Part shown: one piece after another, positions 21,071-49,800 of the stretch
Layout: every line of letters begins with the position of its first letter
Numbering within the stretch: the first letter of the stretch is position 1
NCBI GenBank assembly: GCA_964626635.1
Contig: CAZVFY010000001.1
Location: forward strand, 47,782 to 111,781
Reading direction: 5' to 3'
DNA from: an uncultured Candidatus Saccharibacteria bacterium
GTDB lineage: Bacteria; Patescibacteriota; Minisyncoccia; Phycocordibacterales; UBA918
Length of the DNA stretch: 64,000 nt
Translations under genes and position numbers: made by a program
Notes under the pieces: model-generated
Databases searched by the model: none
What the model was told of the DNA's origin: nothing
What the model saw: only the letters and a program-made list of their open reading frames with translations

Positions 21071-21658
21071 TTATTTTGCCACTTTGCCGTGGCCTGCGGC
21101 CTGCTTTAGCCATTTGTTGCGGCAACTGTCATCGACCTTTTCGCAAGGGCCGTAAGTTGTCACTTGGGTTTTGATACCAGCAAATTCAAGAATACCGTAC
21201 TGAATTTCATTCGTGTAATCGCCGTACTGCCACCAGGTTTTGAAGGGGCTGTGCGATCCAGATAGTACATAGACGCGGGCGGTACGACCAGCGAGATGAC
21301 CTTCAACTTTCTTTGTTTCCTTATTAAAATTGAACGCAAACCCCGGCAACCAGGCCCGATCAAATAAGCCCTTTAGTTTGGCTGGCATGCTGCACCACCA
21401 ATTTGGGTAGGCTAACACAAAATGATCACACTCACGTATGGCGTCTTGAAATTCCATTAGGGCAGGTTCGAGTTGCTGAATCTCTTTGTAGCCCTTGTGC
21501 AACACTGGGTCAAAGTCCATGTCGCCAATGTTGTAGCGCTTGACAAGATGCTCTGCTTCTTCGGCAGCAACTTGATATTGATCTACCACCGAGCTAGTAA
21601 ACGAGTCACTATCGGGGTTACCACAAAGAATAACGATTTTCTTTTGTTGCATAGACAT
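21071..21658 (-). CDS. Flavodoxin-like fold NAD(P)H dehydrogenase (quinone) / FMN reductase
   Basis: 195 aa. KIVILCGNPDSDSF N-terminus and overall similarity to the NQO1/MdaB/Flavodoxin_2 family. Confidence 0.7.
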   Translation of the reverse strand: MSMQQKKIVILCGNPDSDSFTSSVVDQYQVAAEEAEHLVKRYNIGDMDFDPVLHKGYKEIQQLEPALMEFQDAIRECDHFVLAYPNWWCSMPAKLKGLFDRAWLPGFAFNFNKETKKVEGHLAGRTARVYVLSGSHSPFKTWWQYGDYTNEIQYGILEFAGIKTQVTTYGPCEKVDDSCRNKWLKQAAGHGKVAK

Positions 21659-22058: not shown

Positions 22059-22176
22059 ATGCCGGATAGTGTAGCACGTCGCGAAAGCTATACCAAAACC
22101 ACTCGTAACAATGAGTAAGTATAGACAAATTAGTAAATTAGTGGTACTTTTCCGTCATTATATAAAAAAGTACAGT

Positions 22177-23712: not shown

Positions 23713-23713
23713 T

Positions 23714-26700
23714 ATGTGGGACTTCTTCATTCGCAACAATCGGTTTGCGTACTTGTTTATAGTTGCGCTGATTGGTGTCGGTACGTTTAGTGTACTCAAT
23801 ATTCCCCGCGAGTCCTCACCAGAAGTCATCGTGCCGATTGGTGTCGTCACCACCGTGCTGCCGGGCGCGCCGGCGGCTGACATCGAGACATTAGTCACGA
23901 ACGAAATCGAGCGCGGCCTCACTGGACTCGAAGGTGTCGACTCGATCACTTCCGTGTCACGAGAAGGGGTCTCTAGCGTCACCGTCGAGTTTGACGCGTC
24001 AGCTGACGTCGATGAGTCGATCCAAGAACTCAAAGACGAAGTCGACCTCATTCAGTCAGACTTGCCGTCTACAGCAGAAGACTCAATCGTCTCAGAAGTT
24101 AATCTCCAAGATTCACCAGTACTGACCGTCGCGCTGTCTGGATCGTTTACCGATCAAGAATTCACCGCGATCACCAGTGACCTCGAAGCCGAAATCGAGA
24201 CTATCGCTGGCGTATCTCGAGTAGAATTCAGTGGTGTACGCGATCGACAAGTATCAGTGCTAGTCGATCAGGCTGCGCTCGATCAGTTTGGCATCACGCT
24301 GAATACGGTAATCGATGGCTTGCGGGCGGCGAACCAAACTTTCCCGATTGGCCAAATCGAAAATAACGGCATTTCTTATAACGTCGCCTTCGAAGGCGAC
24401 ATCGCCAGTAGCGAAGTCCTCGGGAACGTTGGTATCGCGAATGTGTCAGGACAGCCAATCCTCGTGCGTGACATTGCGCGGGTCGAAGACGGTTTGTCAC
24501 CTGCCAGTTCCCTATCGCGACTGAGTGTCGATGGCGCGCCGTCAGAAAGTGCTGTCGAAATGAATGTTTTCAATCAAACTGGTGGCGACGTCACGCGTGT
24601 CACCACGGCAGTCAACGAACGCCTGGCAGAACTACAGGCTGAAAATGAGGTGCTGGACGGTATCACGTTGGCGGTTATTCAGGACTCGGGCGAGTTAATT
24701 TTGGATGACCTGATTAACCTATCGACATCAGGTTTGCAGACTATCATTCTGGTTGTGCTGCTCTTAGTGGTTGCGATTGGCTGGCGAGAAGGCTTGATCG
24801 CTGGAACCGCTATCCCCTTGTCATTCTTGTTTGGGTTCATCGGGCTGTATTTCAGTGGCAATTCCATCAACTTCCTCAGTCTGTTCTCGCTCATCCTGGG
24901 AATCGGTATCCTCGTCGACTCAGCCATTGTGATGGTTGAGGGTATCAATCGACGCATGAAAGAAGACCCAAACATTGATAAACGCGAAGCGGCTGTCGCC
25001 ACAGTGCGAGAATTTGCTGCGCCACTGACAGCCGGGACGCTGACGACTGTCGCGATGTTCTCGGGGTTGTTTATCGTTAGTGGAGTGATCGGTCAGTTTA
25101 TCTTTAGTATTCCGTTCACAATTATCTTTCTCTTACTCGCATCGATTTTTGTCGCGTTGTTCATTGTGCCGCTAATTGCGTCGCAATTCTTGCGTCGTCG
25201 CAGCACGACAAAATTGGAACAAAAACAGAACGAACTGTCACGCCGACTCGAAGGCTGGTACCGCCACAAACTCGATTGCATCATTGGCAACAAACGACTC
25301 GAGCGACGGTTCATTTGGGGCGTGCGGGCTGGATTAGTAGGAGCCATCCTATTGCCAGTCATCGGTCTGGTGCCAGTGGTATTCTTTGAGCAAGGCGACG
25401 TTGACTTTGTCATTGTGCAACTAGAAAACGCCGAGGGTACAGTCAAAGAAGTCACCGACATCGGTATTCGTCGCGTCGAAGAATTCTTATACGACAAACC
25501 GTACATCGAATCATTCTCGACTACGGTCGGGAGCGGCAGCCAGTTTGCCGGTGGTAGTGCCGGTGAGAAATTCGCCAACATCACCGTCAATTTGCGTGAA
25601 GATCGTGACGTCACTAGTACCGAAGTAATCGACGCGATCCGTACCGATCTGGCGGTTCTGTCTGACCTCAACGTCACAGTTGATCAACCGAGTGACGGGC
25701 CACCGACTGGCGCCGCGGTTGTGATCAAATTCCTCGGCGATGATCTCAGCGCGCTAACCAGGCTGGCCAATGAGTCAGCCAATGTATTGCGCAACATTCC
25801 TAACACCGTCAACATAGAAACGAGCACCAACAATAACAACACCGAGTTCGTCATTAATCTAGACAATGCCAAGGCAACCGCGCTCGGTGTCTCGCCTTCA
25901 CAAGTATCACAGGTGGCCCGTACTGCGCTGTTTGGGGCTGATGCGACATCTCTGACTACTCTCAACGACAGTATTGACGTCGTCGTCAAACTAAACCTTG
26001 ACGGCGATCCGACCATTACTGCCGACACCAGCAATCAAATTAGTATTTCTGACCTCGAGCGCTTGACGATCAGCAGCCCAACTGGACCGGTCACTCTGTC
26101 TTCAGTAGCTGATGTAACACTGCGGGAATCCAGCACAGTCATCAATCACGAAGACGGCGAGCGCGTCGTTAGTGTCACTGCTAATGTCGGGCCCGAAGGA
26201 AACGCCCGCGAGATCCAGGCCACTGCTGTTGAGCGCATCCAGTCCGAGGTGGCCATTCCTGATGGCATTACCCTCAGCACCGGCGGTGGTGAAGCCGAAG
26301 AGTCCAACGAAGCATTCATAGAGATGTTCCTGGCCCTGATCATCGGGATAGGACTGATGGTCGGTATTCTCATTCTGCAGTTCAATTCGTTCTTGCACAC
26401 CAGGTACGTATTGTCGATCCTCCCCTACTCACTGATCGGTGTACTCGGCGGACTGGCGATCACTCAGAATCCGCTGTCCTTCCCGTCTATCATGGGCTTT
26501 ATCGCGCTATCAGGAATCGTGGTCAACAACTCGATCCTACTAATCGACATGATGAATAACCTGCGCCGCAAAGACATGACACGACCGATCAAGGATGTGG
26601 TGCTCGACGCGGCGACTAACCGGTTACGGCCAATTCTACTAACGACCATTACGACTATCTTTGGGGTGGTGCCGCTACTGTTCGCTGGCTCAATCTGGGT

Positions 26701-26851
26701 GCCGCTGGTGTACGCACTGATCTTTGGGCTATTGTTTGCGGTAGTCATTACCCTCTTTACCATCCCAATTACGTATGCCCGCAAACCAGGCAGTCTGCCA
26801 GGTCAGATTGATATGGTGGCTTCTACAGACCAAACCGTACAATACAAATAG
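23714..26851 (+). CDS. Efflux RND transporter permease (AcrB/HAE1-like)
   Basis: 1045 aa. 12-TM RND topology, two large loop domains, conserved FSILPYSLIG...ALSGIVVNNSILLID segments. Confidence 0.9.
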   Translation: MWDFFIRNNRFAYLFIVALIGVGTFSVLNIPRESSPEVIVPIGVVTTVLPGAPAADIETLVTNEIERGLTGLEGVDSITSVSREGVSSVTVEFDASADVDESIQELKDEVDLIQSDLPSTAEDSIVSEVNLQDSPVLTVALSGSFTDQEFTAITSDLEAEIETIAGVSRVEFSGVRDRQVSVLVDQAALDQFGITLNTVIDGLRAANQTFPIGQIENNGISYNVAFEGDIASSEVLGNVGIANVSGQPILVRDIARVEDGLSPASSLSRLSVDGAPSESAVEMNVFNQTGGDVTRVTTAVNERLAELQAENEVLDGITLAVIQDSGELILDDLINLSTSGLQTIILVVLLLVVAIGWREGLIAGTAIPLSFLFGFIGLYFSGNSINFLSLFSLILGIGILVDSAIVMVEGINRRMKEDPNIDKREAAVATVREFAAPLTAGTLTTVAMFSGLFIVSGVIGQFIFSIPFTIIFLLLASIFVALFIVPLIASQFLRRRSTTKLEQKQNELSRRLEGWYRHKLDCIIGNKRLERRFIWGVRAGLVGAILLPVIGLVPVVFFEQGDVDFVIVQLENAEGTVKEVTDIGIRRVEEFLYDKPYIESFSTTVGSGSQFAGGSAGEKFANITVNLREDRDVTSTEVIDAIRTDLAVLSDLNVTVDQPSDGPPTGAAVVIKFLGDDLSALTRLANESANVLRNIPNTVNIETSTNNNNTEFVINLDNAKATALGVSPSQVSQVARTALFGADATSLTTLNDSIDVVVKLNLDGDPTITADTSNQISISDLERLTISSPTGPVTLSSVADVTLRESSTVINHEDGERVVSVTANVGPEGNAREIQATAVERIQSEVAIPDGITLSTGGGEAEESNEAFIEMFLALIIGIGLMVGILILQFNSFLHTRYVLSILPYSLIGVLGGLAITQNPLSFPSIMGFIALSGIVVNNSILLIDMMNNLRRKDMTRPIKDVVLDAATNRLRPILLTTITTIFGVVPLLFAGSIWVPLVYALIFGLLFAVVITLFTIPITYARKPGSLPGQIDMVASTDQTVQYK

Positions 26852-28482: not shown

Positions 28483-29427
28483 TTAGGCGGTTTCTATCAA
28501 GTGCGCCACGAGATCAGTAAATGATAATCCCACCGCGGCGGCAGCCTTGGGGTACAGGGATTCGCCTGTCAGTCCCGGTAGTGTGTTGACTTCAAGGAAG
28601 AATACTTCCCCGCTACGTACGATAAAATCACTACGTGAATACTGTCGCAGCCCGAGCTGCTGATGCGCCACCCTTGCCTGTCTTTGCAGCTCGTCGCGTA
28701 TGTGTGGCGCAAATCGACCCGGGACAATTTCATCGGTTTGTCCACTGTACTTGGCGTCATAATCAAAATAAGCATTCTGTTTGGGTGGTACGATTTCGAT
28801 CACTGGGAAGGCGTATAGCGCTTCACCACGAAAGTTTTCGAGCACGCCGACTGTTGCCTCGACCCCAGCTACGTGTTCTTCGACGAGGATGTCACGATGC
28901 TCCGTCGTCAGTTCGCGTAATGCCTGGTAAGTGTCCTCTGTATCAAGAATCATCCGCGCGCCGTGCGAGGAACCGCTGCGGGTTGGTTTGGCGAATAGAT
29001 TAGCACCGAGTTCCGTTTCTAATTGCGTAATTGTTCGTGGCTGATGCAGTTCGTGTCGACGTAATTTGCGCCCCCGAGCCATGGGTAGATCATTGATTAA
29101 ACGTTCACGAGTCTGACACTTATCAAATGCAATCGCAGATGGTAGTTCGTGCGACCCAGTGTACCGTGTGTCTGATCGGCGCAACAGGCGCTGGATAGTA
29201 CCGTCTTCACCGTACTCACCATGAAGCGCGAGAAACGCTACGTCGACTCCGGCTAGTGCGGCCTGAGGCGATCTGATGCGCCCCTCGACCAGCCAGCGAC
29301 CGGTACGATCAATGACAACATCTAGCGGTTGTCTGTCGCTCAGTGCATCAAGGACCGCACGCCCCGTTTGCATCGACACATCGTACTCACTACTAGGACC
29401 ACCTCGGATAACCGCAATTCGATTCAT
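28483..29427 (-). CDS. ddl: D-alanine--D-alanine ligase
   Basis: 314 aa. ATP-grasp (DVAFLALHGEYGEDGTIQ; EVNTLPGLT). Confidence 0.85.
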   Translation of the reverse strand: MNRIAVIRGGPSSEYDVSMQTGRAVLDALSDRQPLDVVIDRTGRWLVEGRIRSPQAALAGVDVAFLALHGEYGEDGTIQRLLRRSDTRYTGSHELPSAIAFDKCQTRERLINDLPMARGRKLRRHELHQPRTITQLETELGANLFAKPTRSGSSHGARMILDTEDTYQALRELTTEHRDILVEEHVAGVEATVGVLENFRGEALYAFPVIEIVPPKQNAYFDYDAKYSGQTDEIVPGRFAPHIRDELQRQARVAHQQLGLRQYSRSDFIVRSGEVFFLEVNTLPGLTGESLYPKAAAAVGLSFTDLVAHLIETA

Positions 29428-29473: not shown

Positions 29474-30766
29474 CTAGGTGTGTTTATTGCGTTGAGTTTT
29501 GGTGCGGGTGCGCCTCGCCGACGAATCGGTAATACCGAGCGAAGATTTGCTGCGCCGATGACGGTGAAAGGTAATGGCAAAGCGGTGCGCCTCGGCGTTG
29601 GCCTCGAGGATGGCTGCCTGATGGCGGTCGAGCAAGTCTTTTTGGCCGATCAATCGTTCCGGTTTGTGTTTGTGGTTTTTGACTACCGCGACTACCGGAA
29701 TGACCGACCCGTGCTCTTTGAGCACCAGCTCCGCCGCGCGTTTTTGGATTGCGTTCCCATCGACTACTATCAACTGCGGAAATGACCATTCGGGATGCCC
29801 GAGTCGCCTGGTCAATACTTCGCGTAAGGCACCAGGATCGTTGGCTTCGGTGTAGCCGCGGATATTGAATTTGCGGTATTCGCTACTGTTAGGCTGATTA
29901 CCGTCGACCACTGTCATCACTCCGACCATGTCGCTACCCTGCAAATGAGCGATGTCGTACGCCTCGATCCGAATGGATTTGTCGTCGCGATACACCCGGG
30001 CGTCGTCTTTAATGAGTGCAATGTCATGAATGTGCTGTAGCGCTAAAATGCGCTTTTTGATGTTGTTCGCTTCCTCAAACTGCATGGCTTTGGCGTGACG
30101 CATCATGTCGCGCTGTAGTTCTTTGATGATGATATTTTTCTTGCCTTGAAAGAACAGTTTGATGTGCCGGATGGTACGGGTGTACTCGTAGCGATTCTCC
30201 TCGCTGGGGTACAGTCCGATCTGGCGATTAAAATCGATCCTACCTTTGACAACGTTGCTAGTCTCGACCCCAACCGCCCGTTTGGTATCGTAAAATTTAA
30301 ATAGCTTGCGGATGATTTTTAAGGCTTCCTTAAATAGCGCGCCACTCGGGAATGGTCCAAACTCGTATTTGATATCACGCGGATTGAACTGCGTGGCCAA
30401 ATCTTTGCCACGCACGACGAGGACTCGCGGCCACTCTTCTTTGGTAATAATGAGGTGGTTATATGATTTGTCGTCTTTGCTGAGGGTGTTGTACTTTGGT
30501 TTATGAGTGCGGATCAGATTAGTCTCCAGGATCAACGCCTCCAGCACAGAGTCAGTTTCTGTGCATTCGACTGACGCAGCGTTACGCACCATGTTGGCGA
30601 TCAGGGCCGAACGCTTGTCACGCAGATCTGGCGCAAAATAGCTGCGGACTCTCGATCGTAAACTTGTCGCTTTGCCGATGTAGAGAATTTCTTTTTTGGG
30701 TCCCAAGAAAAAGTACACGCCCGTCGCGTCAGGTAGTTCGGTTTTGTCTAAGTCTGCCCGGGTCAT
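29474..30766 (-). CDS. uvrC: Excinuclease ABC subunit C, short form (GIY-YIG + UVR + RNase-H-like endonuclease; no C-terminal HhH)
   Basis: 430 aa. GVYFFLGPKKEILYIGKATSLRSRV (GIY-YIG), QFEEANNIKKRILALQ (UVR), IEAYDIAHLQG (UvrC endonuclease domain). Confidence 0.85.
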   Translation of the reverse strand: MTRADLDKTELPDATGVYFFLGPKKEILYIGKATSLRSRVRSYFAPDLRDKRSALIANMVRNAASVECTETDSVLEALILETNLIRTHKPKYNTLSKDDKSYNHLIITKEEWPRVLVVRGKDLATQFNPRDIKYEFGPFPSGALFKEALKIIRKLFKFYDTKRAVGVETSNVVKGRIDFNRQIGLYPSEENRYEYTRTIRHIKLFFQGKKNIIIKELQRDMMRHAKAMQFEEANNIKKRILALQHIHDIALIKDDARVYRDDKSIRIEAYDIAHLQGSDMVGVMTVVDGNQPNSSEYRKFNIRGYTEANDPGALREVLTRRLGHPEWSFPQLIVVDGNAIQKRAAELVLKEHGSVIPVVAVVKNHKHKPERLIGQKDLLDRHQAAILEANAEAHRFAITFHRHRRSKSSLGITDSSARRTRTKTQRNKHT

Positions 30767-30802: not shown

Positions 30803-33463
30803 CTAGAGAATCTTTTTCAGGTAGCGCCCCGTATGGCTCTTTTCGACTGCGGCGACTTGTTCAGGAGTACCCTTGGCGACGATCGTGCCGCCACCCGCGC
30901 CACCCTCGGGGCCGATGTCGATGATGTAATCAGCTGATTTGACTAGGTCCAAGTTATGCTCGATCACCACGACAGTGTTGCCGCGATCGACCAACTGTTG
31001 CAGAATCTCGATCAATTTCCGCACATCATCATAGTGTAAGCCGATGGTTGGTTCGTCCAATAGGTAGATGGTTTTCTGGGTGTGTTGACGAAATAATTCT
31101 GACGCGATCTTGACCCGTTGTGCTTCCCCGCCGGACAGGGTGGTAGCACTTTGTCCTAGTTCTAGATATCCCAGTCCAACGTCCAGCAGAGATTTCAGGC
31201 GTTCTTGAATAGCCGGAATATCAACGTAAAATTCGTGCGCTTCTTCGATCGTCATGTGCAATACCTCGTAAATATTTTTGCCTTTGTAGCGCACCTCGAG
31301 TGTCTCCCGAGTATAGCGAGTACCGTCACACACATCACAGGTCACATACACCGTCGGCAAGAAGTGCATTTCAACCGCGATCACGCCGTTCCCTTGGCAG
31401 GTCTCGCAGCGACCACCCTTGACGTTAAACGAGAATCGACCGGGCTTCCAGCCACGAGCCCGCGCCTCACCAGAGGCTGCAAATAAATCGCGGATATGCG
31501 TAAACGCGCCGCTGTACGTCGCTGGGTTTGATCGTGGTGTCCGGCCGATGGGTGACTGGTCGATCAAGACCTGACGCCCTAAGTATTCGCTGCCAGTAAA
31601 ACTGCTGGCGTTGTACGTTTTAGGTGAACGATGGCGTTTCTCTAGTCGGGCGAGCAAGTTTTTGTGCACAATTTCGTACATAAAGGTTGACTTGCCCGAA
31701 CCAGATACCCCGGTAATGCAGACTAGTTTGCCGAGTGGCAGGTCGACGTTTAGGTTTTTGACATTAAAAGCTTTGCCTCCCTTGATTTGCAGTTTGCCTT
31801 TCTCGCTGGTACGACGGGTTGGGAGTTCGATGGCCTTTTCGTGACGTAAGTACGCCAGCGTAGTTGAGCCAGATTCGTTGGCGTTAGCCTTGAGGAGTGG
31901 TTCAAGGAAATCGGATACGATCACTTCCCCGCCATGCACGCCAGCGCCAGGACCAATATCTACTAGGTAATCTGACGCGTAGATCGTGTCCTCATCGTGC
32001 TCAACCACCAGGATGGTATTACCGAGATCGCGTAGCTCGCGCAAGGTCTTGATCAGTTTGTCGTTATCACGTTGATGCAGACCGATAGTTGGCTCATCAA
32101 GGACATAGAGCGCCCCGACCAGCCCTGACCCCAATTGTGACGCGAGGCGGATACGTTGCGCCTCACCGCCAGACAGCGTATTGGCCCGCCGATCGAGCGT
32201 CAGGTATTCGATCCCCACATCCATCATAAAATCCAGTCGCTCGATCACCTCTCGTAGCGCGGGCCAGGCGATCTCTTCTTGGGCCTTACTGAGTTTGAGA
32301 TTATTAATAAAATCAGCTGCCTCGGCAACCGTGAGTCCGGTAAAGCCGACAATATTCATGCCCAAATCTTTCTTGCCATCACCACCGAGGTAGACTCGCA
32401 TGGCCTCTGGTCGCAGTCTGGCTCCGTTACACACCGGGCAAACGTCACTATTAAAAATACCAACAACTCCTAGTCCGTTACAGTTTGGGCAGGCGCCGTA
32501 CGGAGAATTGAATGAAAACAGACGGGGTTCCACCTCGGGAAAGCTCGATCCATCAACCGGACAGATAAACTTGGCCGATAGCGTACGATCGGTACCATCT
32601 GGGCTTTCGATTTTGACCAAACCGCTGGCCTCGGCGAGCGCCAATTCAACAGCTTCTGATAGTCGTTCTCGGGAACCCTTAGGATCGTCAGTGAATTCTG
32701 ATACGTAGATCTCGTCAATGAGCACGTCGATATCATGCCGCTTGTTTTTTGACAGGGTAATCTTGTCTCGTAGTTGATGAATCTGCCCATCAATTTTGAC
32801 CGTCTCGTACCCTTTGCCGAGCAGGTCATATAACATCTGGTAGTACTCGCCTTTACGGCCGACGATGACCGGCGCAAAGATCACGACTCGACCCTTACTG
32901 ACTTCTATGCCCATGACGTGCTCGTTCTTTTGCGCCGCCTTAACTTCTTTGTCCTCAATGGATTGCAGGACGATGCCGAGAATTTCGTCTTGTGAAAGCT
33001 TTTGGATTGGTACGTCAACATCCAGACAGTATGGCTGTCCGACGCGCGCGTAAACAATACGCAAATAGTCGTATATCTCAGTGATTGTAGCGACCGTTGA
33101 CCGCGGATTGCGGCTGGCGGATTTCTGGTCAATTGAGATCGCTGGAGATAGGCCGGCGATCTCGTCAACGTCTGGCTTTTGCATTTTGTTGAGAAATTGA
33201 CGGGCGTAGGGAGAAAGGCTCTCGACGTAGCGGCGCTGCCCTTCAGCGAAAATCGTATCAAACGCCAACGATGATTTACCTGAACCCGACGGTCCAGTGA
33301 TGGCGATCATTTTGCCACGAGGCATCACTACATCGACGTTCTTGAGGTTGTGAGTGCGGGCGCCACGAACAATTAGTTTGTCCTCGGCTTTGGTGTCAGC
33401 GTGCCAGGAAACTTGATTGGCGGGCTGCTTCTTTTTGGGTGATTGGTTGTTTTTAGCGGACAT
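30803..33463 (-). CDS. uvrA: Excinuclease ABC subunit A
   Basis: 886 aa. Two ABC ATPase modules (GPSGSGKSS; GVSGSGKST; LSGGEAQR twice) and zinc-finger Cys clusters. Confidence 0.95.
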
Positions 33464-33480
33464 TTGTACAAGTATAACAA

Positions 33481-34821
33481 CTAATGTTTAGACGTACTAG
33501 ACTGCGTGATTGGTAGCGTAACAATCACATGGGTACCAACTGACTTAATTGACTCAATCATAATTGTCCCGCCCAATAGTTCTACTAGCTGCTTTGTAAT
33601 CCAGAGTCCTAAGCCGGTACCTGTGACATTTGATTTTGCGGCTTCCCCTACACGGCTGAATGGGGCAAACAATTTTTGCTGATCGCTGGCCGAAATACCG
33701 GTACCAGTATCTTGAATTTTGACAGTCAGCTTTTTGCCTTTCATATCTGATGTCACTGTGATAGTCCCGTTATCGGTGTATTTGATAGCGTTACTAACTA
33801 GATTGGTCAGTACTTGCGTCAGGCGATTCTGATCGGTTTGTAATAATTGAGCAGACAGCGGTTTAATGTACTGCAACTGCAGACCGCTTTCGGTGGCTAA
33901 GGTTTCGAGTCCTTGCACGGTATCTTGAATCAGGTCACGCACATCTACATTTTGGTATTCTAATTGCATGCGACCAGACTGGATACGGGCTACTTCTAGA
34001 AAATCGTTAACTAATAGGACTAATCTTTCGGCTGATTCACGAATCACTGCTACGTGACGTCGATTTTCTACAGTAAGTGTGTTGGTTTCATGCACTAAGC
34101 TTGCGTACCCCTTAATTGCAGTTAGTGGTGCGCGGAACTCATGGGCGATCATGTTACTAAACAAATCTCGCTCACGCATTCGCTCAGTCGACCGATCGTA
34201 CCGTGAGCGCCAGTCTATTTGTCTGTTAATCCAGTACGCCATGCCTATCAGAATGCACAGTATTAGGGCAATACTAGTGTATGTTGTAAAGGCTATTTGT
34301 TGTATATGCCGATTAGCCAATGTCAACCGGTGCTCACTGAACAGGTAAAGATCTGCGTCTGGTAAGGCTCGCCTCGCATGAACAACCCGATCACTTGCTG
34401 TGTTGAGCTGCACGATTGAGGTTCGATTCGGCTCGGTCAAAGCAGTTGTGAGTGCGGCCGCGTCTGACTCAAGACCTACCTCATTTTGATTTGTGCTATT
34501 GGTAATTACTACTCGACTACTACTGACTGGACGATATAAGCGGAAGACAGTTGCATCTGGGTTACTAACCACAAACATATCCAGTGCGGTTGACAGCTCT
34601 GCGTCGTTCGCTACGAGCACGCTAATAGCATCGTGTAATCCGCTAATGCGCCGGTACTCGGCTGCCGCGATGCGCTCTTCGGCACTCTCTAAAAATTGTT
34701 CACTTGTAAAAAAAAGCGCCAATGGCAACCCCACAACCAACAAGCCAATGACTAATAATTTTGGGGTGCGAATGAGCTGCCTGCAACCGTTTTCGATTGT
34801 GTACAAGAGCCGGGAGAGCAT
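33481..34821 (-). CDS. Sensor histidine kinase (two TM helices flanking an extracytoplasmic sensor; HisKA + HATPase_c)
   Basis: 446 aa. H-box FSNMIAHEFRAPLTAIKGY, N-box LVSNAIKYT, G-boxes DTGTGI and GTGLGL. Confidence 0.85.
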   Translation of the reverse strand: MLSRLLYTIENGCRQLIRTPKLLVIGLLVVGLPLALFFTSEQFLESAEERIAAAEYRRISGLHDAISVLVANDAELSTALDMFVVSNPDATVFRLYRPVSSSRVVITNSTNQNEVGLESDAAALTTALTEPNRTSIVQLNTASDRVVHARRALPDADLYLFSEHRLTLANRHIQQIAFTTYTSIALILCILIGMAYWINRQIDWRSRYDRSTERMRERDLFSNMIAHEFRAPLTAIKGYASLVHETNTLTVENRRHVAVIRESAERLVLLVNDFLEVARIQSGRMQLEYQNVDVRDLIQDTVQGLETLATESGLQLQYIKPLSAQLLQTDQNRLTQVLTNLVSNAIKYTDNGTITVTSDMKGKKLTVKIQDTGTGISASDQQKLFAPFSRVGEAAKSNVTGTGLGLWITKQLVELLGGTIMIESIKSVGTHVIVTLPITQSSTSKH

Positions 34822-34824
34822 ACG

Positions 34825-37116
34825 TTATACATGCCCTAAAGATTCGTCTCGGTGTGGACTGTTTAATTTTAGACTTAATCCCAGAAGTAATAGCAACACT
34901 CCAATAGCCAAAAGCGAAACTCCTAGCACAGTCGTGACACTGCTGGTATCGTCCTGAGAAGTGAGTAGCACTGGTTCTGATACAGTAACTGGGGTTTCGA
35001 CAACGGTGAAAGCTTCAGCCTCCTTTACAAATCGGAAGGGATCAGTCTGAGCAAGAATGGCGCCGGTGTTATCAGTAAGTGCTACAAACACTTGATGTTC
35101 ACCATCTTCTAGTTCTCGTTCAAAGGTATACTCAAAAACGCCTGTTGCGTTCGTTCGCACGGTTACAATAGTCGGCGTGCTAAAGAGATACAGTGTGACA
35201 AAACTGTTTGGCAGTGCCCTACCTCGTACTGTGGTTTTAATAGTTGGTTCATCAGCCACCGCGCTCACGTCAATTAAGGGTGTCACCGAATCAATTTTTA
35301 ATTCTGGAATACGAGGTACCCCAATGGTAGTTTTAGGTGATTCGTATACAATCGCTGCTTCTGCAGATGCATCGGTGGGATTAAATCCGCGAATAATTTC
35401 TGCCCCATCAGTAAAGCCGTCGTTATCGGTGTCAACCAAAGTGGGGTCGGTATTGAATAGCGTCACTTCATCAACATCGCTAACGCCATCGCCATCTGTG
35501 TCAACGGCCGAATCAGATTCGCTACGCTCTCGACGCACGTCCTCAAAAGCAATGACCGATGCTTGCATAGTTTCTAACGCCGCCTGTAATTCTCGAGCTA
35601 TGTCATCAGCGATGAACCACTGTTCGTCATTGGCCAGCAACTCGCGCAAAATTACGCTTTGATACTGAGATATATTTGTCTCGGCGGCCGCTATTAAAAC
35701 CGGGTCATTAGATTGTACGGCGATAGACAGTTGAGTAAATAATTGATCCAATTCTGCTTGGTCGGCCAAAATTCTATCGGCCACAATGGCTTTTATTGAA
35801 TCAGTGGTTGAGGTACCAGTTTCAAAATCTTGATATAAATCAGCATTGAGCTCTCTCGTGATGGTGAGCAAACGACCGGTTTCCAGTGCTGCGCTTTCGG
35901 CCGGTGTTATGTTGTCAATTGTAACTAATTCTGAATTGGATTCATCAATTGCTCCATCAGCAGAACTGCGAGCATACAACTCGTAGGAGCCATTGGGTAG
36001 TTGAGCACTGTTGAACACAAAAGAACCGGCTCGCGGTGGCGAAGCAACCGAACCGATTAGTTGTGAACCTGTTGATTGAGCTGATCGTGCAAAAAATTGT
36101 ATATTATCAGCTTGGTTTTGGGTTGTGTATTGAAAAGATACAGAGTTTGTGATGTTTCTTGGTGCAGTGATGGTTACTACATTAGTTGCTGCGCTCAGCG
36201 CTTGCTGTTCAACCATGAACCTGGCTTGTTCAGAGGTAACAACATCGTTGCTCTCCCCTTCTATTCTCACAGCTTGGTCATCAATTGGTACCGCAAATGA
36301 GGCGAGCTGGTAAGTGTCGACATTACCGATACGGTCACGAATGTTGACAGCGACTTGATACATCGCTGGGTCCAACTCAGAAACTGGTATAGTCGTAGCA
36401 AATTTATCGTTTCCAAGCGGGTTAACTGACAGATCAATATTCTGACTTACACCACGTTCGTTCTGAAAGAGTAAAGTAGCATTGACACTATCAGTATTGG
36501 GGGCAGAAAATGTGAGTGTTTCAGTGGCACCTAGGGTGCCTGACAAGCCATCAATAATTTTGACATGACGACTAGGTATAGAAGCCTTTACTGCAACAGT
36601 GCTAGCTTGAGACACTAAGGCTGGCTGACAATCTGTAGTGCAACCGGCCTCATAGACTATAGATTGATAAAGTATTCCGGCACTCACTAACGTAAATATG
36701 ATGGCACCAATAACACTGCTAGCAATAGCGCTACGATACAAGTACTCGTCTGCGTGCTCATAAAGGAGCACCACCTTATCTTTGAGTCTTAGCGGGACAT
36801 TGGTTGGGAGTTCGACCACAGCTGAGTGTGCTGGTGATGCTGTTTGATTTATTTTATGCGTTCGTCTACGGTTAGGGCTCTGTGGTGATTTAGCGCTAAC
36901 AGTAGCGCGCTTTCGCGTGGTTGCTTTTTGTTTTGGGGCTGTTGCAGCGACACTCTTAGAGATTGTAGAACGGGTGATTTTTCGGGCGGTGGAGCGTGGC
37001 TTAGCGGTACGTGCGGTCGTAGCGACACCCTTCGGAGCTGCTACTTTTTTAGTTTTTGTGACCGGAGCTTTTTTACTGGTCGTCTTTTTCTTGGGTTCTT
37101 GGGGAGTCAGCGCCAT
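34825..37116 (-). CDS. Large bitopic surface protein: Lys/Ala/Thr-rich histone-H1-like cytoplasmic tail, TM, extracellular domain with thrombospondin-type-3-like Ca-binding repeats, C-terminal TM
   Basis: 763 aa. KKKTTSKKAPVTKTKKVAAPKG... N-terminus, TM VIGAIIFTLVSAGILY, DTDGDGVSDVDEV...DTDNDGFTDGAE repeats, C-terminal LLAIGVLLLLLGLSL. Confidence 0.5.
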   Translation of the reverse strand: MALTPQEPKKKTTSKKAPVTKTKKVAAPKGVATTARTAKPRSTARKITRSTISKSVAATAPKQKATTRKRATVSAKSPQSPNRRRTHKINQTASPAHSAVVELPTNVPLRLKDKVVLLYEHADEYLYRSAIASSVIGAIIFTLVSAGILYQSIVYEAGCTTDCQPALVSQASTVAVKASIPSRHVKIIDGLSGTLGATETLTFSAPNTDSVNATLLFQNERGVSQNIDLSVNPLGNDKFATTIPVSELDPAMYQVAVNIRDRIGNVDTYQLASFAVPIDDQAVRIEGESNDVVTSEQARFMVEQQALSAATNVVTITAPRNITNSVSFQYTTQNQADNIQFFARSAQSTGSQLIGSVASPPRAGSFVFNSAQLPNGSYELYARSSADGAIDESNSELVTIDNITPAESAALETGRLLTITRELNADLYQDFETGTSTTDSIKAIVADRILADQAELDQLFTQLSIAVQSNDPVLIAAAETNISQYQSVILRELLANDEQWFIADDIARELQAALETMQASVIAFEDVRRERSESDSAVDTDGDGVSDVDEVTLFNTDPTLVDTDNDGFTDGAEIIRGFNPTDASAEAAIVYESPKTTIGVPRIPELKIDSVTPLIDVSAVADEPTIKTTVRGRALPNSFVTLYLFSTPTIVTVRTNATGVFEYTFERELEDGEHQVFVALTDNTGAILAQTDPFRFVKEAEAFTVVETPVTVSEPVLLTSQDDTSSVTTVLGVSLLAIGVLLLLLGLSLKLNSPHRDESLGHV

Positions 37117-37165
37117 AATATTTAGTATACTCAGTTTGATACCTATAATTGGACCCTGTACACAA

Positions 37166-37708
37166 CTACTGCTTTGTGACCTGGTGAATGATGTTGACTA
37201 ACTCTTCAAGATCAGTGAGAGCCTTAACGTAAAATCCAGCTGCACCCATGGCAGCCGCTTGGGCGCGAGTTTCTGCATTGTCTTTATTAGAAAAAACAAT
37301 TACCGGCGCTGCAATATTAATGGCTTTAAGAGTAGACCACACATCAAATCCACTAGTACCGGGCAGCATCAAATCTAGTAGCACGACGTGAGGAGTATGT
37401 GCTTGTGCTAACTCTACTGCGTCAGAGCCATCAGTTGAGATGTAAAATTCTATTTTAGAACGCTCTAGCTTTGTTGCTAGTAAATTCTGTAATAGCGGAT
37501 CATCTTCAATGACTAACACCCTAATGCCAGCAACACTGGCTGCTTTCGAAGGGTGAAGTGCTGATTCTAGGTCCTTTAAGGCCGCTTGCGATGTGGTGTC
37601 TGTGTCTGCGCCCAGATCTGTGTCTGCTAATGACAATGTGCGATCAACTACCTTCGAACCAGTTGCGCCAAATCCGTCATTTGTGTTCTCTTTAAATTCA
37701 CCATTCAT
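37166..37708 (-). CDS. Response-regulator receiver (REC-only) protein
   Basis: 180 aa. IRVLVIEDDPLL, phospho-acceptor context VVLLDLMLPGTSG, conserved K in IVFSNKD. Low-complexity N-terminal extension and no output domain. Confidence 0.75.
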   Translation of the reverse strand: MNGEFKENTNDGFGATGSKVVDRTLSLADTDLGADTDTTSQAALKDLESALHPSKAASVAGIRVLVIEDDPLLQNLLATKLERSKIEFYISTDGSDAVELAQAHTPHVVLLDLMLPGTSGFDVWSTLKAINIAAPVIVFSNKDNAETRAQAAAMGAAGFYVKALTDLEELVNIIHQVTKQ

Positions 37709-37757
37709 ACTTTGAGTCTACCATCTAGTAAATACACACCTACAATTTATGCACGGA

Positions 37758-39788: not shown

Positions 39789-39870
39789 AATGTGGCAGTA
39801 TAGCCTGACACTTTAAATAGTTAAAGCGCAGCAGACTGTTCAAGTCTGCTGCGCCCAGTGGCTCTTGGCT

Positions 39871-44571: not shown

Positions 44572-45837
44572 TTAGGTGTCAGTAGTGTCGACCCGGAATC
44601 CCGGTGGCTCGTAATATTCGGTGACTGCAAAATTTTCGGTCATTGATAAATATATTCCCCACACCATTAACAACCCGAGAGCGACCACCGCAGCACTCGC
44701 TGCTAGTAACAAGCGATTGTCACGCAGCCATTTAAGGCGACGATGCTGAAGCGTAGCGCCTTCATCGTCGGAACGTAGATCAAGTAGATCAGCCCCAGGG
44801 CCTGAAGCGTTCGTGGGCGCAGTTCTGCGGTGAGCCATGCGCTTTAAGTCGGGCGTAATGCCTGAAAGGCGCAACATCCGTCTGATGTAGTACCGCACCG
44901 CCAATACGACTAACCCCACCAATCCACTAATCAGCACGGAGCCGAGCAGCAAACCGCGCCAGGGTATTATCCAGAAGTGTGTTTCGGCAGACATAAACTG
45001 CCTTGATTCAGAGCCGTATCCAAGTGTCAAGGCAGCCGTGTGGCGACCAAAATGTGACAGCTGCCAATCACTCGACCAATTAATCACATACTCGCGAGTG
45101 CTACTAGCCAGCACATTACCAAACTGGCTATTGCCGCCGATCTCGATTCTGGTGTGCTCATTACCCCACATATCGGTCACTGTTATGTCACCATCTGGTT
45201 GCAAATGGACATTGCCAGTATTTTTGACGCGGACAGAAAAACTAGTGTCAGGCGCTGCATAAATCAATTGAGAAGTAATAAACTCGCGCAGGCGAGCCTC
45301 CTCGATAACGCCGCCGCCAACGGTCAACAACACCAGAGACGTCACCACCTGGGCCGTCTCGAGCCTGGACACCTGCGCCCCAGAGTCTGGTGGACGAGTA
45401 CCGACTAGCAAGGCAGCGTAGTGCCCTCCTGGTGGTGCGTCGTCTGGCACGTTTATGGAAAACGGCACCTGTGCCACCGCACCCGGTTTGATGGTGTGCA
45501 TGAGTTCTGGAATGGTGATCCATTCGGCGATGGTGTTGCCAGGCTCATTTTGGTCCAAGATCGGCAACAACTCGCCGGTTCCCTGTTCGCCTACCGGAGC
45601 AAAATTAACTGCTTCGACGTAGACCGTGATCGGATACTCATTAGCATTAATCACGCGCAACTGACTCCGAAATGGTACGCCAGGCACCGTATCCGCGTTG
45701 AACATCGTCGGTGTCACACTGAGCACCTGCGACGACTGCGCGCCGACCGCGCTCACCCCAACCGCACTGAAACTAGCCAGCAGCAGAACGCCAAAAATAG
45801 CGTACCTATTAATTATTATTTGCCAGGTCAATGTCAT
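44572..45837 (-). CDS. Secreted / C-terminally TM-anchored surface protein (signal peptide, beta-sandwich ectodomain, TM, cytoplasmic tail); DUF916/DUF3324-like architecture
   Basis: 421 aa. Signal peptide ending VGAQS, ectodomain, TM LLLGSVLISGLVGLVVLAV, basic tail, second C-terminal hydrophobic segment. Confidence 0.45.
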   Translation of the reverse strand: MTLTWQIIINRYAIFGVLLLASFSAVGVSAVGAQSSQVLSVTPTMFNADTVPGVPFRSQLRVINANEYPITVYVEAVNFAPVGEQGTGELLPILDQNEPGNTIAEWITIPELMHTIKPGAVAQVPFSINVPDDAPPGGHYAALLVGTRPPDSGAQVSRLETAQVVTSLVLLTVGGGVIEEARLREFITSQLIYAAPDTSFSVRVKNTGNVHLQPDGDITVTDMWGNEHTRIEIGGNSQFGNVLASSTREYVINWSSDWQLSHFGRHTAALTLGYGSESRQFMSAETHFWIIPWRGLLLGSVLISGLVGLVVLAVRYYIRRMLRLSGITPDLKRMAHRRTAPTNASGPGADLLDLRSDDEGATLQHRRLKWLRDNRLLLAASAAVVALGLLMVWGIYLSMTENFAVTEYYEPPGFRVDTTDT

Positions 45838-46801
45838 GATCTTTGGTTTCGTGATCGCGGTTAGTGCCGACGTACATCGCTACCGACTCGCCGTGTTCAC
45901 TGTTATCTGTCACTGCGCGCGTTCGCAGTAAAGAGAGTAAGAGTAGTAGTACGGCTAGCATGCCAACGCCAAGAACTAAGAAAATCCACCATGGCACCGC
46001 TAGGAACGATGTCGACGCGAACACCGTTGCGCGTTGCTCGCCATACGTGAGGAGCGCGTTGGCTGACACTCGCCCGGCCGGGACAGTGTCGGGGAGCGGT
46101 ACTGTCAGTACCAACTCTTCGCTCACGCCAATTATTTGGTCATAGGTGTTAACTGGCGCCGCCGCGATCTCGCGACCGCGCGCGTCATAAAAAACTACTT
46201 CGCCTTGCGGGTTGATAGCGCGTTGGCCTTCATTAGTGACAGTTAGTGTCAATGTTTTATCAGACTCATCAAACACAAAGCGATCGCTTTCGAGAGCTGC
46301 GATCCTGATACTCTCGACCCGGGTGTCGGGCACGGTGACCTTGAGGATCAGTCCTGGCGCGTCACCGGCTAGCGCAGCTGCTTCGGCTATTGCGCGATTA
46401 CTGGCTTGTGTCAAACCAATAAACGCGTGGTACACACCCGGCGGTGTGTTGGGGTGGGTCTGGACGGTCAGTGGGATCGCGGTTGTTTCACCGGCTGGCA
46501 AGCTAATCCGACCGCGGTTGATGCTGATCCAGCTAGTGACATCGGTCTCGCGATCCGTCATCACTGGTGGTACGAACTCGCTGATGCTGCCGGTATTGTC
46601 GATGGCGATTTGGTTGACGGTGGCGTACAGTGTTGCGGTGCGACTGTCATAACTGTTGCGCAGGGTGATGTCGCGAGTGACAGACTGGCGTGGCTCAATT
46701 TCTATGTCAATTAATCGGGGTGCGATAGATACATCCGCTGATGCTGGTATAGTTCCAGCAATCCATAATGCCGCGATTAGTGGTGGGTACCGCAATTTCA
46801 T
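45809..46801 (-). CDS. Secreted / C-terminally TM-anchored surface protein, same architecture as the neighbouring 44572..45837 gene
   Basis: 330 aa. Signal peptide (AALWIAGTIPASA), ectodomain, TM WWIFLVLGVGMLAVLLLLLSLL. Confidence 0.45.
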   Translation of the reverse strand: MKLRYPPLIAALWIAGTIPASADVSIAPRLIDIEIEPRQSVTRDITLRNSYDSRTATLYATVNQIAIDNTGSISEFVPPVMTDRETDVTSWISINRGRISLPAGETTAIPLTVQTHPNTPPGVYHAFIGLTQASNRAIAEAAALAGDAPGLILKVTVPDTRVESIRIAALESDRFVFDESDKTLTLTVTNEGQRAINPQGEVVFYDARGREIAAAPVNTYDQIIGVSEELVLTVPLPDTVPAGRVSANALLTYGEQRATVFASTSFLAVPWWIFLVLGVGMLAVLLLLLSLLRTRAVTDNSEHGESVAMYVGTNRDHETKDHDIDLANNN

Positions 46802-46817
46802 AGGTGTATCATATCAT

Positions 46818-49800
46818 TTAGAATGCTGGCGCTGCGATGTAGGCCACATCGGTCGCGTACTCACCGGCTGGTTGGAGCGCTGTCACGCTCGCGCGATAGA
46901 CCACGTCATGGGTGTCGACGGTTTTCTGGGCTGAATACATAATTTCTTGTGGCGTCGTATGAAGTGCCGCGTAAGCATCAGTCGGCGCGAACCGCGTCGA
47001 GCCACCCGACAGCGTGCCGTCAGTGGTGTGATATCCCACACAGCCAGTACCACTGCTAGAACAGGCACTGGCCCATCCAGCCGGCGCATTGTTGGTGCTG
47101 GTGATGTTGGCAATACTGTTACCACGTCCATCGATTAGTCCGCTGCGAGCGTACTTGTACACTCGGTAGCCATCAGTCGCGTTCGTGTCGATTACCAATC
47201 GTTGTGCCGCAATCACATCAGACCCCAGTGGTATTGATCCAAACCGGACGCCGTCGGCTGTCGTCGAAGCTGTTGTCGTGACGCCAGCAGTGGTGGTACC
47301 GCTCGGTACGCCATTAATGGTAAAGGTAAGGTTTGCGCCGTCAGAAACCAGTGAGGGGTAGCTCGCCCCATTGGCGAGCGAGACCGGCCGGCCGCGACCA
47401 ACGTCGTACAGCCGGAAATAGTAGACAATATTGGGGCGCAAGGCGGCTGGACTGATCGTAAACGAGTACTCTTGGGCTGCGCTCGCGGTGTGCGTGTGTC
47501 CGGTGACATACGCTCCAGCGCTATTATGCCGACCACAACCGCTACCGACGCTACTACTACAACTATCGGCACTCGCCAAGAGCGCAGTCGTGATAAGAGT
47601 GTTGTCGGACACAGCACCAGTATCGTAGCACCAGGGATCAGCTAGGGTACAGGTTCCAATCGGATTCAGTGTGTCCGCACTGCTAAAATCCGCCAGTGTT
47701 GAGACTTGCAGCGCGAACTTGGTGTCGACTCCTTCGACGTTTTTGGTTTCTGGTACCACTATTCGCAGCGCTAGTGTCGAAGAAGCACCAATGTCAGTCG
47801 GGGCGGTGTCGGGGTTTGCTCTTGGCTGCACTGGCGTTTCAGTTGCAGAGTCTTGATACCAACGCCACTCGCCAATCGCGGGTGAGAAATCTGCGGTACG
47901 CAACTGCGGATAATGTAAATAGCCGCGCAAGGGTGTCCCGCCACGCTCAACCATGCGGAAACAATATGGTGTATCAATAGCGGCGCCGTTATTTTCAAGA
48001 TACCAATCGTACTCGACCTCCTCTCCGTCAAACACGCGATAGGTATTGGATGCTGTGTCATTCTGCTGCTCGAGCGTACCGGCCACATCCGACACTGACA
48101 ACAGCAACTCACCAGACGTAGGCGGATCAGTCGACAACACATCGCCATCAGTCGTATTTGTCGAAGCATGCCCGCGCCAAATAGTGCTAGCCGCAGTGCC
48201 GCCCACGTCGCTCCAGGTCGCCACGGCACTACAGGTCGTTACCCGCTCGGCAAACTGCAACGTAAAGCGAACGAAGTCTTCGGGCAGGTTCGCGTTGCGC
48301 GCCTCAATTGACATCCGCAAGCGCAACACATCCCCGACGCCTGGCGGTTTATCGAGATCGGTGATCGAGGTATTTTCACCGAGGTCAACAGCCCCCGCTG
48401 GCCACGGATCGCTCGGCGTCAGTTGGTCATTATCGTCGTACCACCGATAGTAGCTTTGCTGGTATTGCAAATCAGCGATTGGCCACTGCACTAATTCGAC
48501 TTGGTAATACAACGTTTCACCAGTATCACTACGCCAAATTGCGTAAGTGGTGGGGTTAATAATTTTAAGGCCAGCAATCGAGCGTGGGTGGGCGTTATTG
48601 GTACCGTCAGCTGCGCTACTACCGAAAATCGACGCATTACTCACCGCTGATAGTGTGTCGGAAATACTGAGTGAAGACAGTAACGGCTCAGAGCCGCCCC
48701 GCATCGAGCCGCTTTGGCGTTCAACTTTCATGGCGCCAGGGCCTGTCTGCGTGTTGGCGATAACCCAGGCGACACCAGTGTGCGTATTGGTCATGTCCGC
48801 GTCGGCTGCGAGGCGGAACGAGACCGCACCGATACTAGACATGAACACTTCGTGTCCATGTGACGCAACCAGTGAATTACCAGTCATGCGCTTTTGCGGG
48901 TGCAAGAATGTCTGGGACAATGCGGGCACCGCGGTGATGCTCGCGGTCTCGGTCGTGCCAGCCTGAGTGTACACATGCTCGACACGATCAATTTGCCAAT
49001 TGAAGCCGGTGTATTCAACCACCGCATAACTGACAAAGGCAGTCACCCCAAGGGTGGCCGCTCGAGTAAATTCTGGTACATCGAGTGTCTCATTCCAGTC
49101 GCTCGTGAACTGCGTCGTATGGAAATCATTGGCCGTGTCGTCTCCCCCAATCCCAGTGATGAATACCACTACATCTGCATCATCTGCAATCGTGACACTT
49201 GGCCCAGCGACGGTGGTATCACCAAGACCAACCGACACCACCCCGACGTCGCGCACGATCATTTCGTTATCGGTGGTAGGTCGACCAATAAATTCAATAA
49301 TCTCCCAATCAATCCTCGTTTCATTAAGGTTTATGTCTCGCGTAAACGTAATACTAGTGTCCAGATTGTCGGGATTCTGAATGTAGGCAGTGACCTCCTC
49401 GACGTCTTGTGAGCCACCGCCATTAATATCGCCGGCTCCAGTGTGATGGGTGTTGGTAATACGAATAAATGCAGTGCCAGTTGCCGCTGGCGGCGTGTAG
49501 TCGGCACCAGCGGTGATGGTCGTATTTAAGCCCGTCAAGACAGTTGTACCACGCTGCGTCTTAAAGTCTTGTTTGGCAGACATAATGATCTGGGGGTATT
49601 GCTCGTAGCCTTCGAGTGCTTCATTATTGGCCACCAGTCGGAAGCAATAGGTGGCTTCGAATGCAGTCGCGTTCGTACTGGTCAAGCTAAACTCATACTC
49701 AATAAAAGTGTCTGCGGCGAGCGAGATTGCGCTCGTGCTGGCCGAAGATTCTCGTACCCCGTCGATACCGACGAACGTGGGTTCCCGGTCTGCGATACCG

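Follow-up and report, generated by a model that had tools for sequence, protein, structure and literature searches.

A kinase-surface protein gene pair with a stand-alone receiver: a candidate three-component signalling module in Saccharibacteria-type bacteria

Background

Extracytoplasmic accessory proteins encoded together with a two-component system have been described in several bacterial groups. The present study deals with a candidate of this kind in a stretch of 64,000 nucleotides (nt) from an uncultured Candidatus Saccharibacteria bacterium (the whole stretch is hereafter called the window), where the genes of a sensor histidine kinase (HK), a large surface protein and a response regulator reduced to its receiver domain (REC) lie between uvrA and uvrB. 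In the WalR-WalK system of Firmicutes, the kinase gene is accompanied by those of YycH and YycI, membrane-anchored proteins believed to control the kinase in part via contacts between transmembrane (TM) helices; both are singly anchored, and WalR binds DNA. Single-domain regulators such as CheY, Spo0F and DivK act by protein-protein contact.

In Enterobacteriaceae, accessory protein QseG binds the periplasmic domain of its kinase and is needed for phosphorylation (PMC6075780). LpqB of Actinobacteria interacts with and modulates the kinase, according to Hoskisson & Hutchings (2006) as cited in PMC5845573. Closer to the present host, the cultured Saccharibacterium Southlakia epibionticum carries two trios, SEML1_0245-0246-0247 and SEML1_0319-0318-0317, each composed of an extracytoplasmic 'hypothetical' protein, an HK and a REC-only regulator (PMC10633639, supplementary tables). 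Their accessory proteins are PsbP-like and DUF3048 proteins, and genes SEML1_0245-0247 were essential or growth-defective in transposon insertion sequencing (PMC10633639). Host sensing and the switch between free and attached states of Patescibacteria have been described as completely unknown (PMC11665869), and the literature searched on two-component systems of Saccharibacteria, TM7x and Southlakia contained no description of the module reported here.

A conserved gene pair and its clade-specific receiver

The locus is an old, conserved signalling module of ultrasmall bacteria of the Patescibacteria/Saccharibacteria type. As to how it works, our preferred reading, held with slightly better than even confidence, is that of a three-component module, with a kinase made together with a co-sensor or modulator at the cell surface and passing its signal to a receiver that stands alone. 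The listing of open reading frames (ORFs) of the window placed six of them here, all on the minus strand (lengths in amino acids, aa):

29474-30766, minus strand: uvrC, 430 aa (NCBIfam UvrC, 254 bits versus a cut-off of 285)
30803-33463, minus strand: uvrA, frame gene 3' of the module and not part of it, 886 aa (NCBIfam equivalog, 1224 bits)
33481-34821, minus strand: sensor histidine kinase (HK), 446 aa
34825-37116, minus strand: surface protein, candidate accessory protein or co-sensor, 763 aa
37166-37708, minus strand: stand-alone response regulator (REC), 180 aa
37758-39788, minus strand: uvrB, frame gene 5' of the module and not part of it, 676 aa (NCBIfam equivalog, 935 bits)

These coordinates reproduce exactly those of a three-gene block that an earlier note on this DNA had placed between uvrA/uvrC and uvrB. 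The gaps, announced there as 3-50 nt, measured 36, 17, 3, 49 and 49 nt in the order uvrC-uvrA-HK-surface protein-REC-uvrB. Window proteins were assigned with Pfam, and the uvr genes also with NCBIfam. The identities proposed for the kinase and the output-less receiver held as well, with HisKA and HATPase_c in the former and Response_reg alone in the latter. Since the minus strand carries nearly all genes of the window, the shared strand is uninformative here. A kinase protein identical to that of the window was found on 7 contigs (JGI and Logan data). At the two places shown, from JGI and Logan, it was accompanied by the same 180-aa REC and the same 763-aa surface protein, so that the short REC is not an assembly artefact. 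Conservation of each of these ORFs in about 35 independent loci identifies them as real genes.

Related loci were collected by several routes. A genome scan with the surface protein gave two relatives with the same gene order, and four further loci reached via HK orthologues, two of them on contigs of ~1 Mb, displayed it again. Against a word-indexed protein database, the full-length surface protein matched only itself, its lysine-rich tail and TSP3 words swamping the candidates. This was overcome by taking its C-terminal 178 aa as query, and a metagenome scan performed in this way gave 35 loci (numbered with an L below). Window proteins were then compared with all ORFs of the loci by BLASTP. 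In essentially every sufficiently long locus (about 35) the order was tgt ... uvrB-REC-surface protein-HK-uvrA-uvrC-ddl, within a syntenic region spanning FKBP-tgt-uvrB...uvrC-ddl. Frame genes were 75-88% identical across the clade (81-88% for UvrA), and triad proteins 30-53% (surface protein 30-45%, HK 32-46%, REC 32-53%). Such divergence within a slowly evolving frame makes the module both old and fast-evolving. The recurrence of the triad in related genomes, which the earlier note had left to be checked, was thereby established, with parallel divergence of its members. Two loci (L039 and L045) had no REC gene, and three (L041, L044 and L046) had a short, divergent REC of ~120 aa.

The tightest association was that of two genes. 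The surface-protein gene stood directly before the HK gene in every locus reaching far enough (about 35 of the Saccharibacteria type), and a surface-protein relative directly followed by an HK was also found in 7/7 loci of distant Patescibacteria (L047, L048, L053, L054 (Moranbacteria), L059, L060 and L061). An accessory gene conserved beside the kinase, as in three-component systems, is thus present throughout. The distant loci have unrelated surroundings, without uvr genes or an adjacent receiver in any of the seven; in L047 and L048 the pair adjoins glycolysis genes. Their HKs display the same layout, with a sensor domain between two TM helices followed by a dimerization and histidine phosphotransfer domain (DHp) and a catalytic and ATP-binding domain (CA). 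Their surface proteins share at least the Big_13 module with that of the window, plus a C-terminal TM helix where the end was examined. Surface protein and kinase therefore make up the constant unit. Receiver and uvr frame characterize a single clade, the receiver being an addition specific to it. Only part of the earlier proposal of a signalling module dedicated to the surface protein can thus be retained: parallel divergence in about 35 loci indicates that the three genes are linked in function and inherited together, but dedication through the receiver is not supported, since the pair persists without an adjacent one in all distant loci.

The surface-protein family is large. An exhaustive, profile-free search at E<=1e-30 gave 283 representatives (50% identity), mostly of 700-900 aa and matching at their extreme C-terminus. 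More than 120 clusters of HK orthologues were counted at 90% identity.

Organization of the three proteins

The kinase displayed Pfam domains HisKA (61 bits, residues 218-283) and HATPase_c (99 bits, residues 329-439). H227, N340/N344, D371-G373-G375 and G401-G403-G405 were invariant in 66 orthologues, and the acceptor histidine and the N, G1 and G2 boxes of a classical HisKA-type kinase are therefore all in place. An AlphaFold2 model based on these 66 orthologues reached a mean predicted local distance difference test score (pLDDT) of 85.1. In this model, a short N-terminal cytoplasmic helix is followed by TM1, which extends as a long helix, and then by the sensor domain, TM2, DHp and CA. The sensor domain has a secondary-structure order typical of PDC/Cache-like domains, and TM2 continues as one unbroken helix into DHp, without a HAMP domain.

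34297-34701, minus strand: extracytoplasmic alpha/beta sensor domain of the HK, ~residues 41-175 (model)

The surface protein exceeded Pfam thresholds for TSP3_bac (39.4 bits, cut-off 25) and Big_13 (34.8 bits, cut-off 27), the two hallmarks by which it was classified. A weak Big_3_5 match (Pfam) and a 'Ca_tandemer' match below cut-off (NCBIfam) were also recorded. Hydropathy and an AlphaFold2 model (62 homologues, mean pLDDT 75.8) both gave two TM helices separated by ~570 aa. The protein is thus predicted to be anchored at both ends, with cytoplasmic termini and ~570 aa outside, instead of being bitopic as first described. Its parts are, from the N-terminus onwards:

36820-37116, minus strand: cytoplasmic tail at the N-terminus, residues 1-99, rich in K, R, T, A and P, with predicted disorder (pLDDT <50)
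36775-36816, minus strand: juxtamembrane motif, residues 101-114 (alignments)
36667-36741, minus strand: predicted TM helix 1, ~residues 126-150 (hydropathy; model pLDDT 87-95)
35917-36561, minus strand: two predicted extracellular immunoglobulin (Ig)-like beta-sandwiches, residues 186-275 and 314-400 (model strands with pLDDT >90)
35524-35844, minus strand: predicted extracellular helical bundle, residues 425-531 (pLDDT about 90; no family match)
35362-35514, minus strand: two TSP3-like repeats, residues 535-585 (Pfam TSP3_bac, 2 stretches)
35005-35298, minus strand: membrane-proximal Ig-like Big_13 domain, residues 607-704 (Pfam, model, alignments)
34864-34947, minus strand: predicted TM helix 2, residues 724-751 (hydropathy score 2.66; model helix), with a short cytoplasmic tail after it

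The epithet 'lysine-rich' given earlier to the whole protein applies to its N-terminal 125 aa, with 23% K+R, and not to the remainder; in the tail itself D+E amount to 5%. Among relatives, length and sequence of the tail vary and its composition is kept (20-33% K+R). The juxtamembrane motif follows the consensus V-x-L-P-[TSN]-x-[MV]-[SP]-x-R-x-x-[DE]-K (V-x-L-P-T-N-V-P-L-R-L-K-D-K in the window), its P104 being conserved in at least 90% of the 62 sequences, and in the model it runs into a long helix (residues 109-157) that contains TM1. F141 and G145 of TM1 were likewise conserved in at least 90% of these sequences, and G739 and L742 of TM2 were invariant.

Outside the membrane, the bundle comprises modelled helices 437-451, 453-469, 472-495 and 500-531, with Y463, A466, Q468, F524, E525 and R528 as conserved residues. 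The TSP3 repeats read DTDGDGVSDVDE and DTDNDGFTDGAE, following the pattern Dx[DN]xDGxxDxxE, and D539/D541/D543/G544/E550/D562/D564/D566/G567/D570/E573 were invariant in the 62 sequences, so that these repeats probably bind Ca2+. The Big_13 domain is the most conserved portion of the family and the part held in common with short relatives (~250-340 aa) in other Patescibacteria. A Foldseek comparison of the model with the PDB returned only generic Ig tandems of antibodies, FN3 proteins and adhesins, and no informative relative.

37187-37519, minus strand: canonical receiver domain of the REC protein, residues 64-174 (Pfam Response_reg)

In the 180-aa REC protein, Response_reg (75 bits, residues 64-174) was the only match, and Pfam gave no output or DNA-binding domain. 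Acidic pocket E68/D69/D70, acceptor D112, S140, F159 and K162 are present and conserved across relatives. A receiver without an effector domain is the definition of a single-domain (CheY-like) regulator. In relatives, the protein is usually longer (~267 aa, range 254-280) and starts with a pseudo-receiver that carries N in place of the acceptor D and lacks the K; the canonical receiver comes after it. The N-terminal 63 aa of the window protein align to the end of this pseudo-receiver, which marks the protein as a shortened form that has lost most of that domain; the 49-nt spacer between REC and uvrB is too small for a missed exon. HK and REC genes are neighbours in about 30 loci, and helix alpha1 of DHp in the kinase and alpha1 of REC change together in the L041/L044/L046 subclade. 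Profiles built from the kinases and receivers of relatives revealed no second HK or REC in the window. Together, these observations point indirectly to HK and REC being cognate partners. A regulator output domain encoded nearby was also considered and rejected, there being no other REC or HK in these 64 kb and no DNA-binding domain in REC itself.

Transcription signals

A Shine-Dalgarno-like motif was present in only 1 of 44 window genes (44 large ORFs, e.g. 21071-21658, 28483-29427 and 58089-59234). Motif TAnnnT occurred at -15 to -5 in 16/44 of these genes versus 7% at random positions; 5/44 genes of a control window had it. This suggests that leaderless expression is widespread in the host. 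Four -10-like elements, all consensus matches, concern the locus:

37715-37720, minus strand: TAGACT, 6 nt 5' of the REC start
37124-37129, minus strand: TATACT, 7 nt 5' of the surface-protein start
39797-39802, minus strand: TATACT, 5' of the uvrB start
33471-33476, minus strand: TATACT in the 17-nt spacer between HK and uvrA, 7 nt 5' of the uvrA ATG

In related loci, a -10-like element, often TGn-extended, likewise lies 6-9 nt before the ATG. It was found as TGnTAnnnT 6-7 nt upstream of REC in 25/25 loci, as TATAAT or TATACT upstream of the surface protein in about 27/30, and upstream of uvrB in 17/20, ddl in 17/21 and uvrA in about half. TAGACT is thus the probable promoter of a leaderless REC transcript. 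The HK start had no -10-like element of its own, neither in the window nor in related loci. The HK gene starts 3 nt after the surface-protein stop in the window, and the two overlap by 4 nt (ATGA) in most relatives. We infer from these signals that the genes are leaderless and individually promoted, surface protein and HK forming a bicistron; only these two look obligatorily co-transcribed. The 'one operon' of the earlier note is not required, as REC, surface protein, uvrB and uvrA each have a -10-like element of their own. More generally, in streamlined, often leaderless genomes with genes on the same strand, tight spacing proves neither an operon nor an insertion.

Further signals were noted around the uvr genes. 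The tgt-uvrB interval contains a strong terminator-like hairpin (40226-40203; 10 pairs, 8 of them G-C) and, after it, a near-consensus extended -10 promoter, TTGACA-16-TATACT, at 40125-40098, at a distance of ~300 nt from the start of uvrB. A conserved hairpin, CCTTCGCC-N5-GCGAAGG, immediately precedes the start of uvrA in about half of the related loci (L017 at ~11960-11996, L019, L034, L036, L043 and L051), sometimes with TATAAT ahead of it, and is absent in the window; it might serve as a regulatory element 5' of uvrA.

Proposed mechanism

According to our preferred reading, kinase and surface protein would be made together and would probably form one complex, in which the surface protein acts as co-sensor or modulator through contacts of the ectodomains, the TM helices or both. 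Topology prediction places the surface-protein ectodomain and the HK sensor on the same side of the membrane. What is sensed would be a cue at the cell surface, e.g. Ca2+, the condition of the envelope or host-cell contact. The kinase would then phosphorylate the adjacent stand-alone receiver, which would have to act through protein-protein contact because it has no DNA-binding domain; a candidate target lies in the surface protein, namely its juxtamembrane motif or its K/R-rich tail. The complex, the nature of the signal, the phosphotransfer from kinase to receiver and the receiver target are all inferred.

Several points weigh against this reading. Only gene linkage speaks for the accessory role, and generic ectodomain folds such as these would fit an adhesin equally well. 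The promoter assignments are consensus matches in a host whose promoters are unmapped, and read-through from uvrB to uvrC is possible because no terminator-like hairpin was found between these genes in the window. Most loci were retrieved with the surface protein or the HK as query, which biases the frequency of the module among relatives. Finally, S. epibionticum, the only cultured species checked, has no member of the family, which hence comes without an experimental phenotype.

Such a module is not surprising in principle, and signalling in this group is essentially unexplored. It is a widespread arrangement linking a sensor kinase, a large Ig-like surface protein with putative Ca2+-binding repeats and a regulator without DNA-binding domain. 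It provides a concrete, testable candidate for signalling in response to surface or host contact in Patescibacteria.

Alternative explanations

The alternative that survives best, tentative as it is, is the inside-out model of the earlier note. In this model, kinase and receiver serve to control the surface protein: phosphorylated REC or the pseudo-receiver docks on the motif or tail of the surface protein and alters its ectodomain or clustering, and hence adhesion. It draws on the lack of an output domain in REC, on a tail ending in the P104-containing motif that leads into TM1, and on the way tail and motif go along with the REC gene. A tail of at least 80 aa is combined with a long REC (~254-280 aa) in about 24 loci, and L035 has a long REC and the motif with a tail of only 48 aa; a tail of 80-160 aa and the motif are found in nearly all loci with a long REC. 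Tail, motif and REC are all absent from L039, L047, L048 and L053, and the motif is degenerate in L045, which has no REC, and in L041, L044 and L046, where REC is short. Among the distant loci, the surface-protein N-termini examined were those of L047, L048 and L053; L054, L059, L060 and L061 likewise have no REC nearby. Against the model, this co-occurrence rests on few independent evolutionary events, and a tail of 136 aa is retained in L045, where no REC gene adjoins. The deeper link is that of surface protein and kinase, which needs neither REC nor tail, and REC has a promoter-like element of its own.

The inside-out model can coexist with the co-sensor model as its feedback arm. The extended form, in which the surface protein rather than transcription is the two-component output of the clade and phosphorylated REC, in most species together with its pseudo-receiver domain, binds motif or tail to close a membrane sensor-effector loop, strikes us as similarly speculative. 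If true, the loop would act in these epibiotic ultrasmall bacteria as a switch for adhesion at the surface or for contact with the host, and the kinase-surface protein cassette would be an ancestral sensor of cell surface or host contact in Patescibacteria.

Rather unlikely is the possibility that the surface protein is a plain envelope or adhesion protein without signalling role, next to a kinase sensing its own ligand through the PDC-like domain. The ectodomain is indeed built of generic adhesin-type modules (Ig-like, TSP3 and the sub-cut-off Ca_tandemer), and the kinase itself possesses a full sensor domain. Yet chance neighbours would not be expected to persist as a pair, with overlapping or near-abutting frames, among entirely different neighbouring genes.

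Even less probable, and very much so, is a tie between the module and nucleotide excision repair, be it by control of uvrA/uvrC expression or by a histone-like tail tethering DNA at the membrane. It is true that in about 35 loci the module is confined to the interval between uvrB and uvrA, where spacers are short and intergenic terminators lacking, and that the composition of the basic, disordered tail resembles that of DNA-binding tails. However, the pair occupies non-uvr contexts in 7/7 distant loci, the regulator has no DNA-binding domain, and separate -10-like elements precede uvrB and, in about half of the loci, uvrA as well. Moreover, synteny extends from FKBP/tgt to ddl, so that the linkage is not specific to uvr genes. 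A two-component gene is also coupled to a uvr gene in uvrY-uvrC of Escherichia coli, by a 4-nt overlap and, as is generally known, without a repair role; a uvr frame therefore need not be functional. UvrY itself is a NarL-type DNA-binding regulator with its kinase BarA encoded elsewhere, and, unlike here, no accessory protein is involved.

A recently acquired island splitting a uvrBA operon can be dismissed as most improbable: its one supporting feature, a G+C content of ~0.45-0.47 across the triad versus 0.50-0.55 in the uvr genes, also fits fast-evolving, less constrained genes with products rich in K, T and S, whereas the repeat search gave no direct or inverted repeats flanking the triad, the window holds no integrase or transposase ORFs, and the deeply syntenic arrangement was kept while the triad proteins diverged to 30-50% identity. 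The block had earlier been called 'inserted', a term that does not suit an ancestral, stable order in a region that is syntenic as a whole. Nor are uvrA and uvrB adjacent in a genome lacking the block: uvrB and uvrA of S. epibionticum lie about 104 kb apart, and its annotation tables list no Big_13/TSP3 protein and neither PF19077 nor PF18884 (PMC10633639, supplementary tables). There was thus no pre-existing uvrBA operon to insert into. As judged from gene order, the position between uvrB and uvrA is best regarded as inherited from an ancestor, with no sign of a repair role.

Neighbouring genes

UvrA and UvrB exceeded their NCBIfam equivalog cut-offs; UvrC remained slightly under its own because the protein is short. 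It contains GIY-YIG, UVR and RNase H-like endonuclease domains and no C-terminal HhH region, and is also 411-434 aa long in related loci. The only large plus-strand genes of the window (22111-26851) code for an HlyD-like adaptor and an AcrB-type RND transporter; an AcrB-like gene also ends syntenic locus L063. Four consecutive minus-strand ORFs at 44572-54784 (421, 330, 2048 and 595 aa) had no Pfam match at E<=1e-4. Upstream of the receiver-less pair, L047 (6993-7355) and L048 (6909-7292) encode a small treble-clef zinc-finger protein (PF23477). In L052 (4450-6739), the surface-protein gene was called as two ORFs (248 and 341 aa) and uvrB likewise (471 and 203 aa), which probably reflects frameshifts or sequencing errors rather than biology.

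Comparison with known systems

The earlier note had regarded the kinase/surface-protein/receiver arrangement as unusual. This is not supported, since accessory proteins within two-component operons are known (qseE-qseG-qseF, mtrA-mtrB-lpqB) and REC-only regulators beside a 'hypothetical protein then HK' are annotated twice in S. epibionticum. The latter trios differ from the present one by their accessory families and by their kinases, a 235-aa soluble HK and a PAS HK. An association of extracytoplasmic protein, HK and REC-only regulator seems a common design in Saccharibacteria.

The regulator resembles CheY, Spo0F and DivK in having no output domain; unlike these, it is not accompanied by partner genes for chemotaxis, a phosphorelay (Hpt/Spo0B) or the cell cycle. 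The longer REC of relatives recalls described pseudo-receiver proteins (PMC12632262) by a pseudo-receiver without acceptor Asp and Lys. No description of a pseudo-receiver plus receiver linked to a surface protein was found in the literature searched.

The QseE-QseG-QseF system shares with the present locus an extracytoplasmic accessory gene inside a two-component locus, with conserved linkage (PMC6075780). QseG, a small outer-membrane lipoprotein, is related to the TSP3/Big_13 protein neither by sequence nor by fold. The regulator QseF is a sigma-54 activator with DNA-binding output, and the gene order is HK-accessory-regulator, as against REC-surface protein-HK with an output-less regulator here. 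The present host is also presumed monoderm, unlike the bearers of QseEGF. MtrA-MtrB-LpqB of Actinobacteria likewise joins a regulator, a kinase and an extracytoplasmic accessory protein in a trio conserved throughout the phylum (PMC5845573). It differs by its OmpR-type DNA-binding regulator MtrA, by the order regulator-HK-accessory, and by LpqB being a lipoprotein of another family, whose domain was not found in the window protein (Pfam). YycH and YycI are unrelated to the surface protein too, again without a Pfam match. The surface protein is thus no homologue of LpqB, QseG, YycH or YycI, its only matches in Pfam and NCBIfam being TSP3_bac, Big_13 and weak Ig/adhesin ones. By analogy, then, the likeness to QseEGF, MtrAB-LpqB and WalRK-YycHI would be one of function and not of family membership, and a new family of accessory proteins, doubly anchored and with a receiver as only output, would join the known three-component class.

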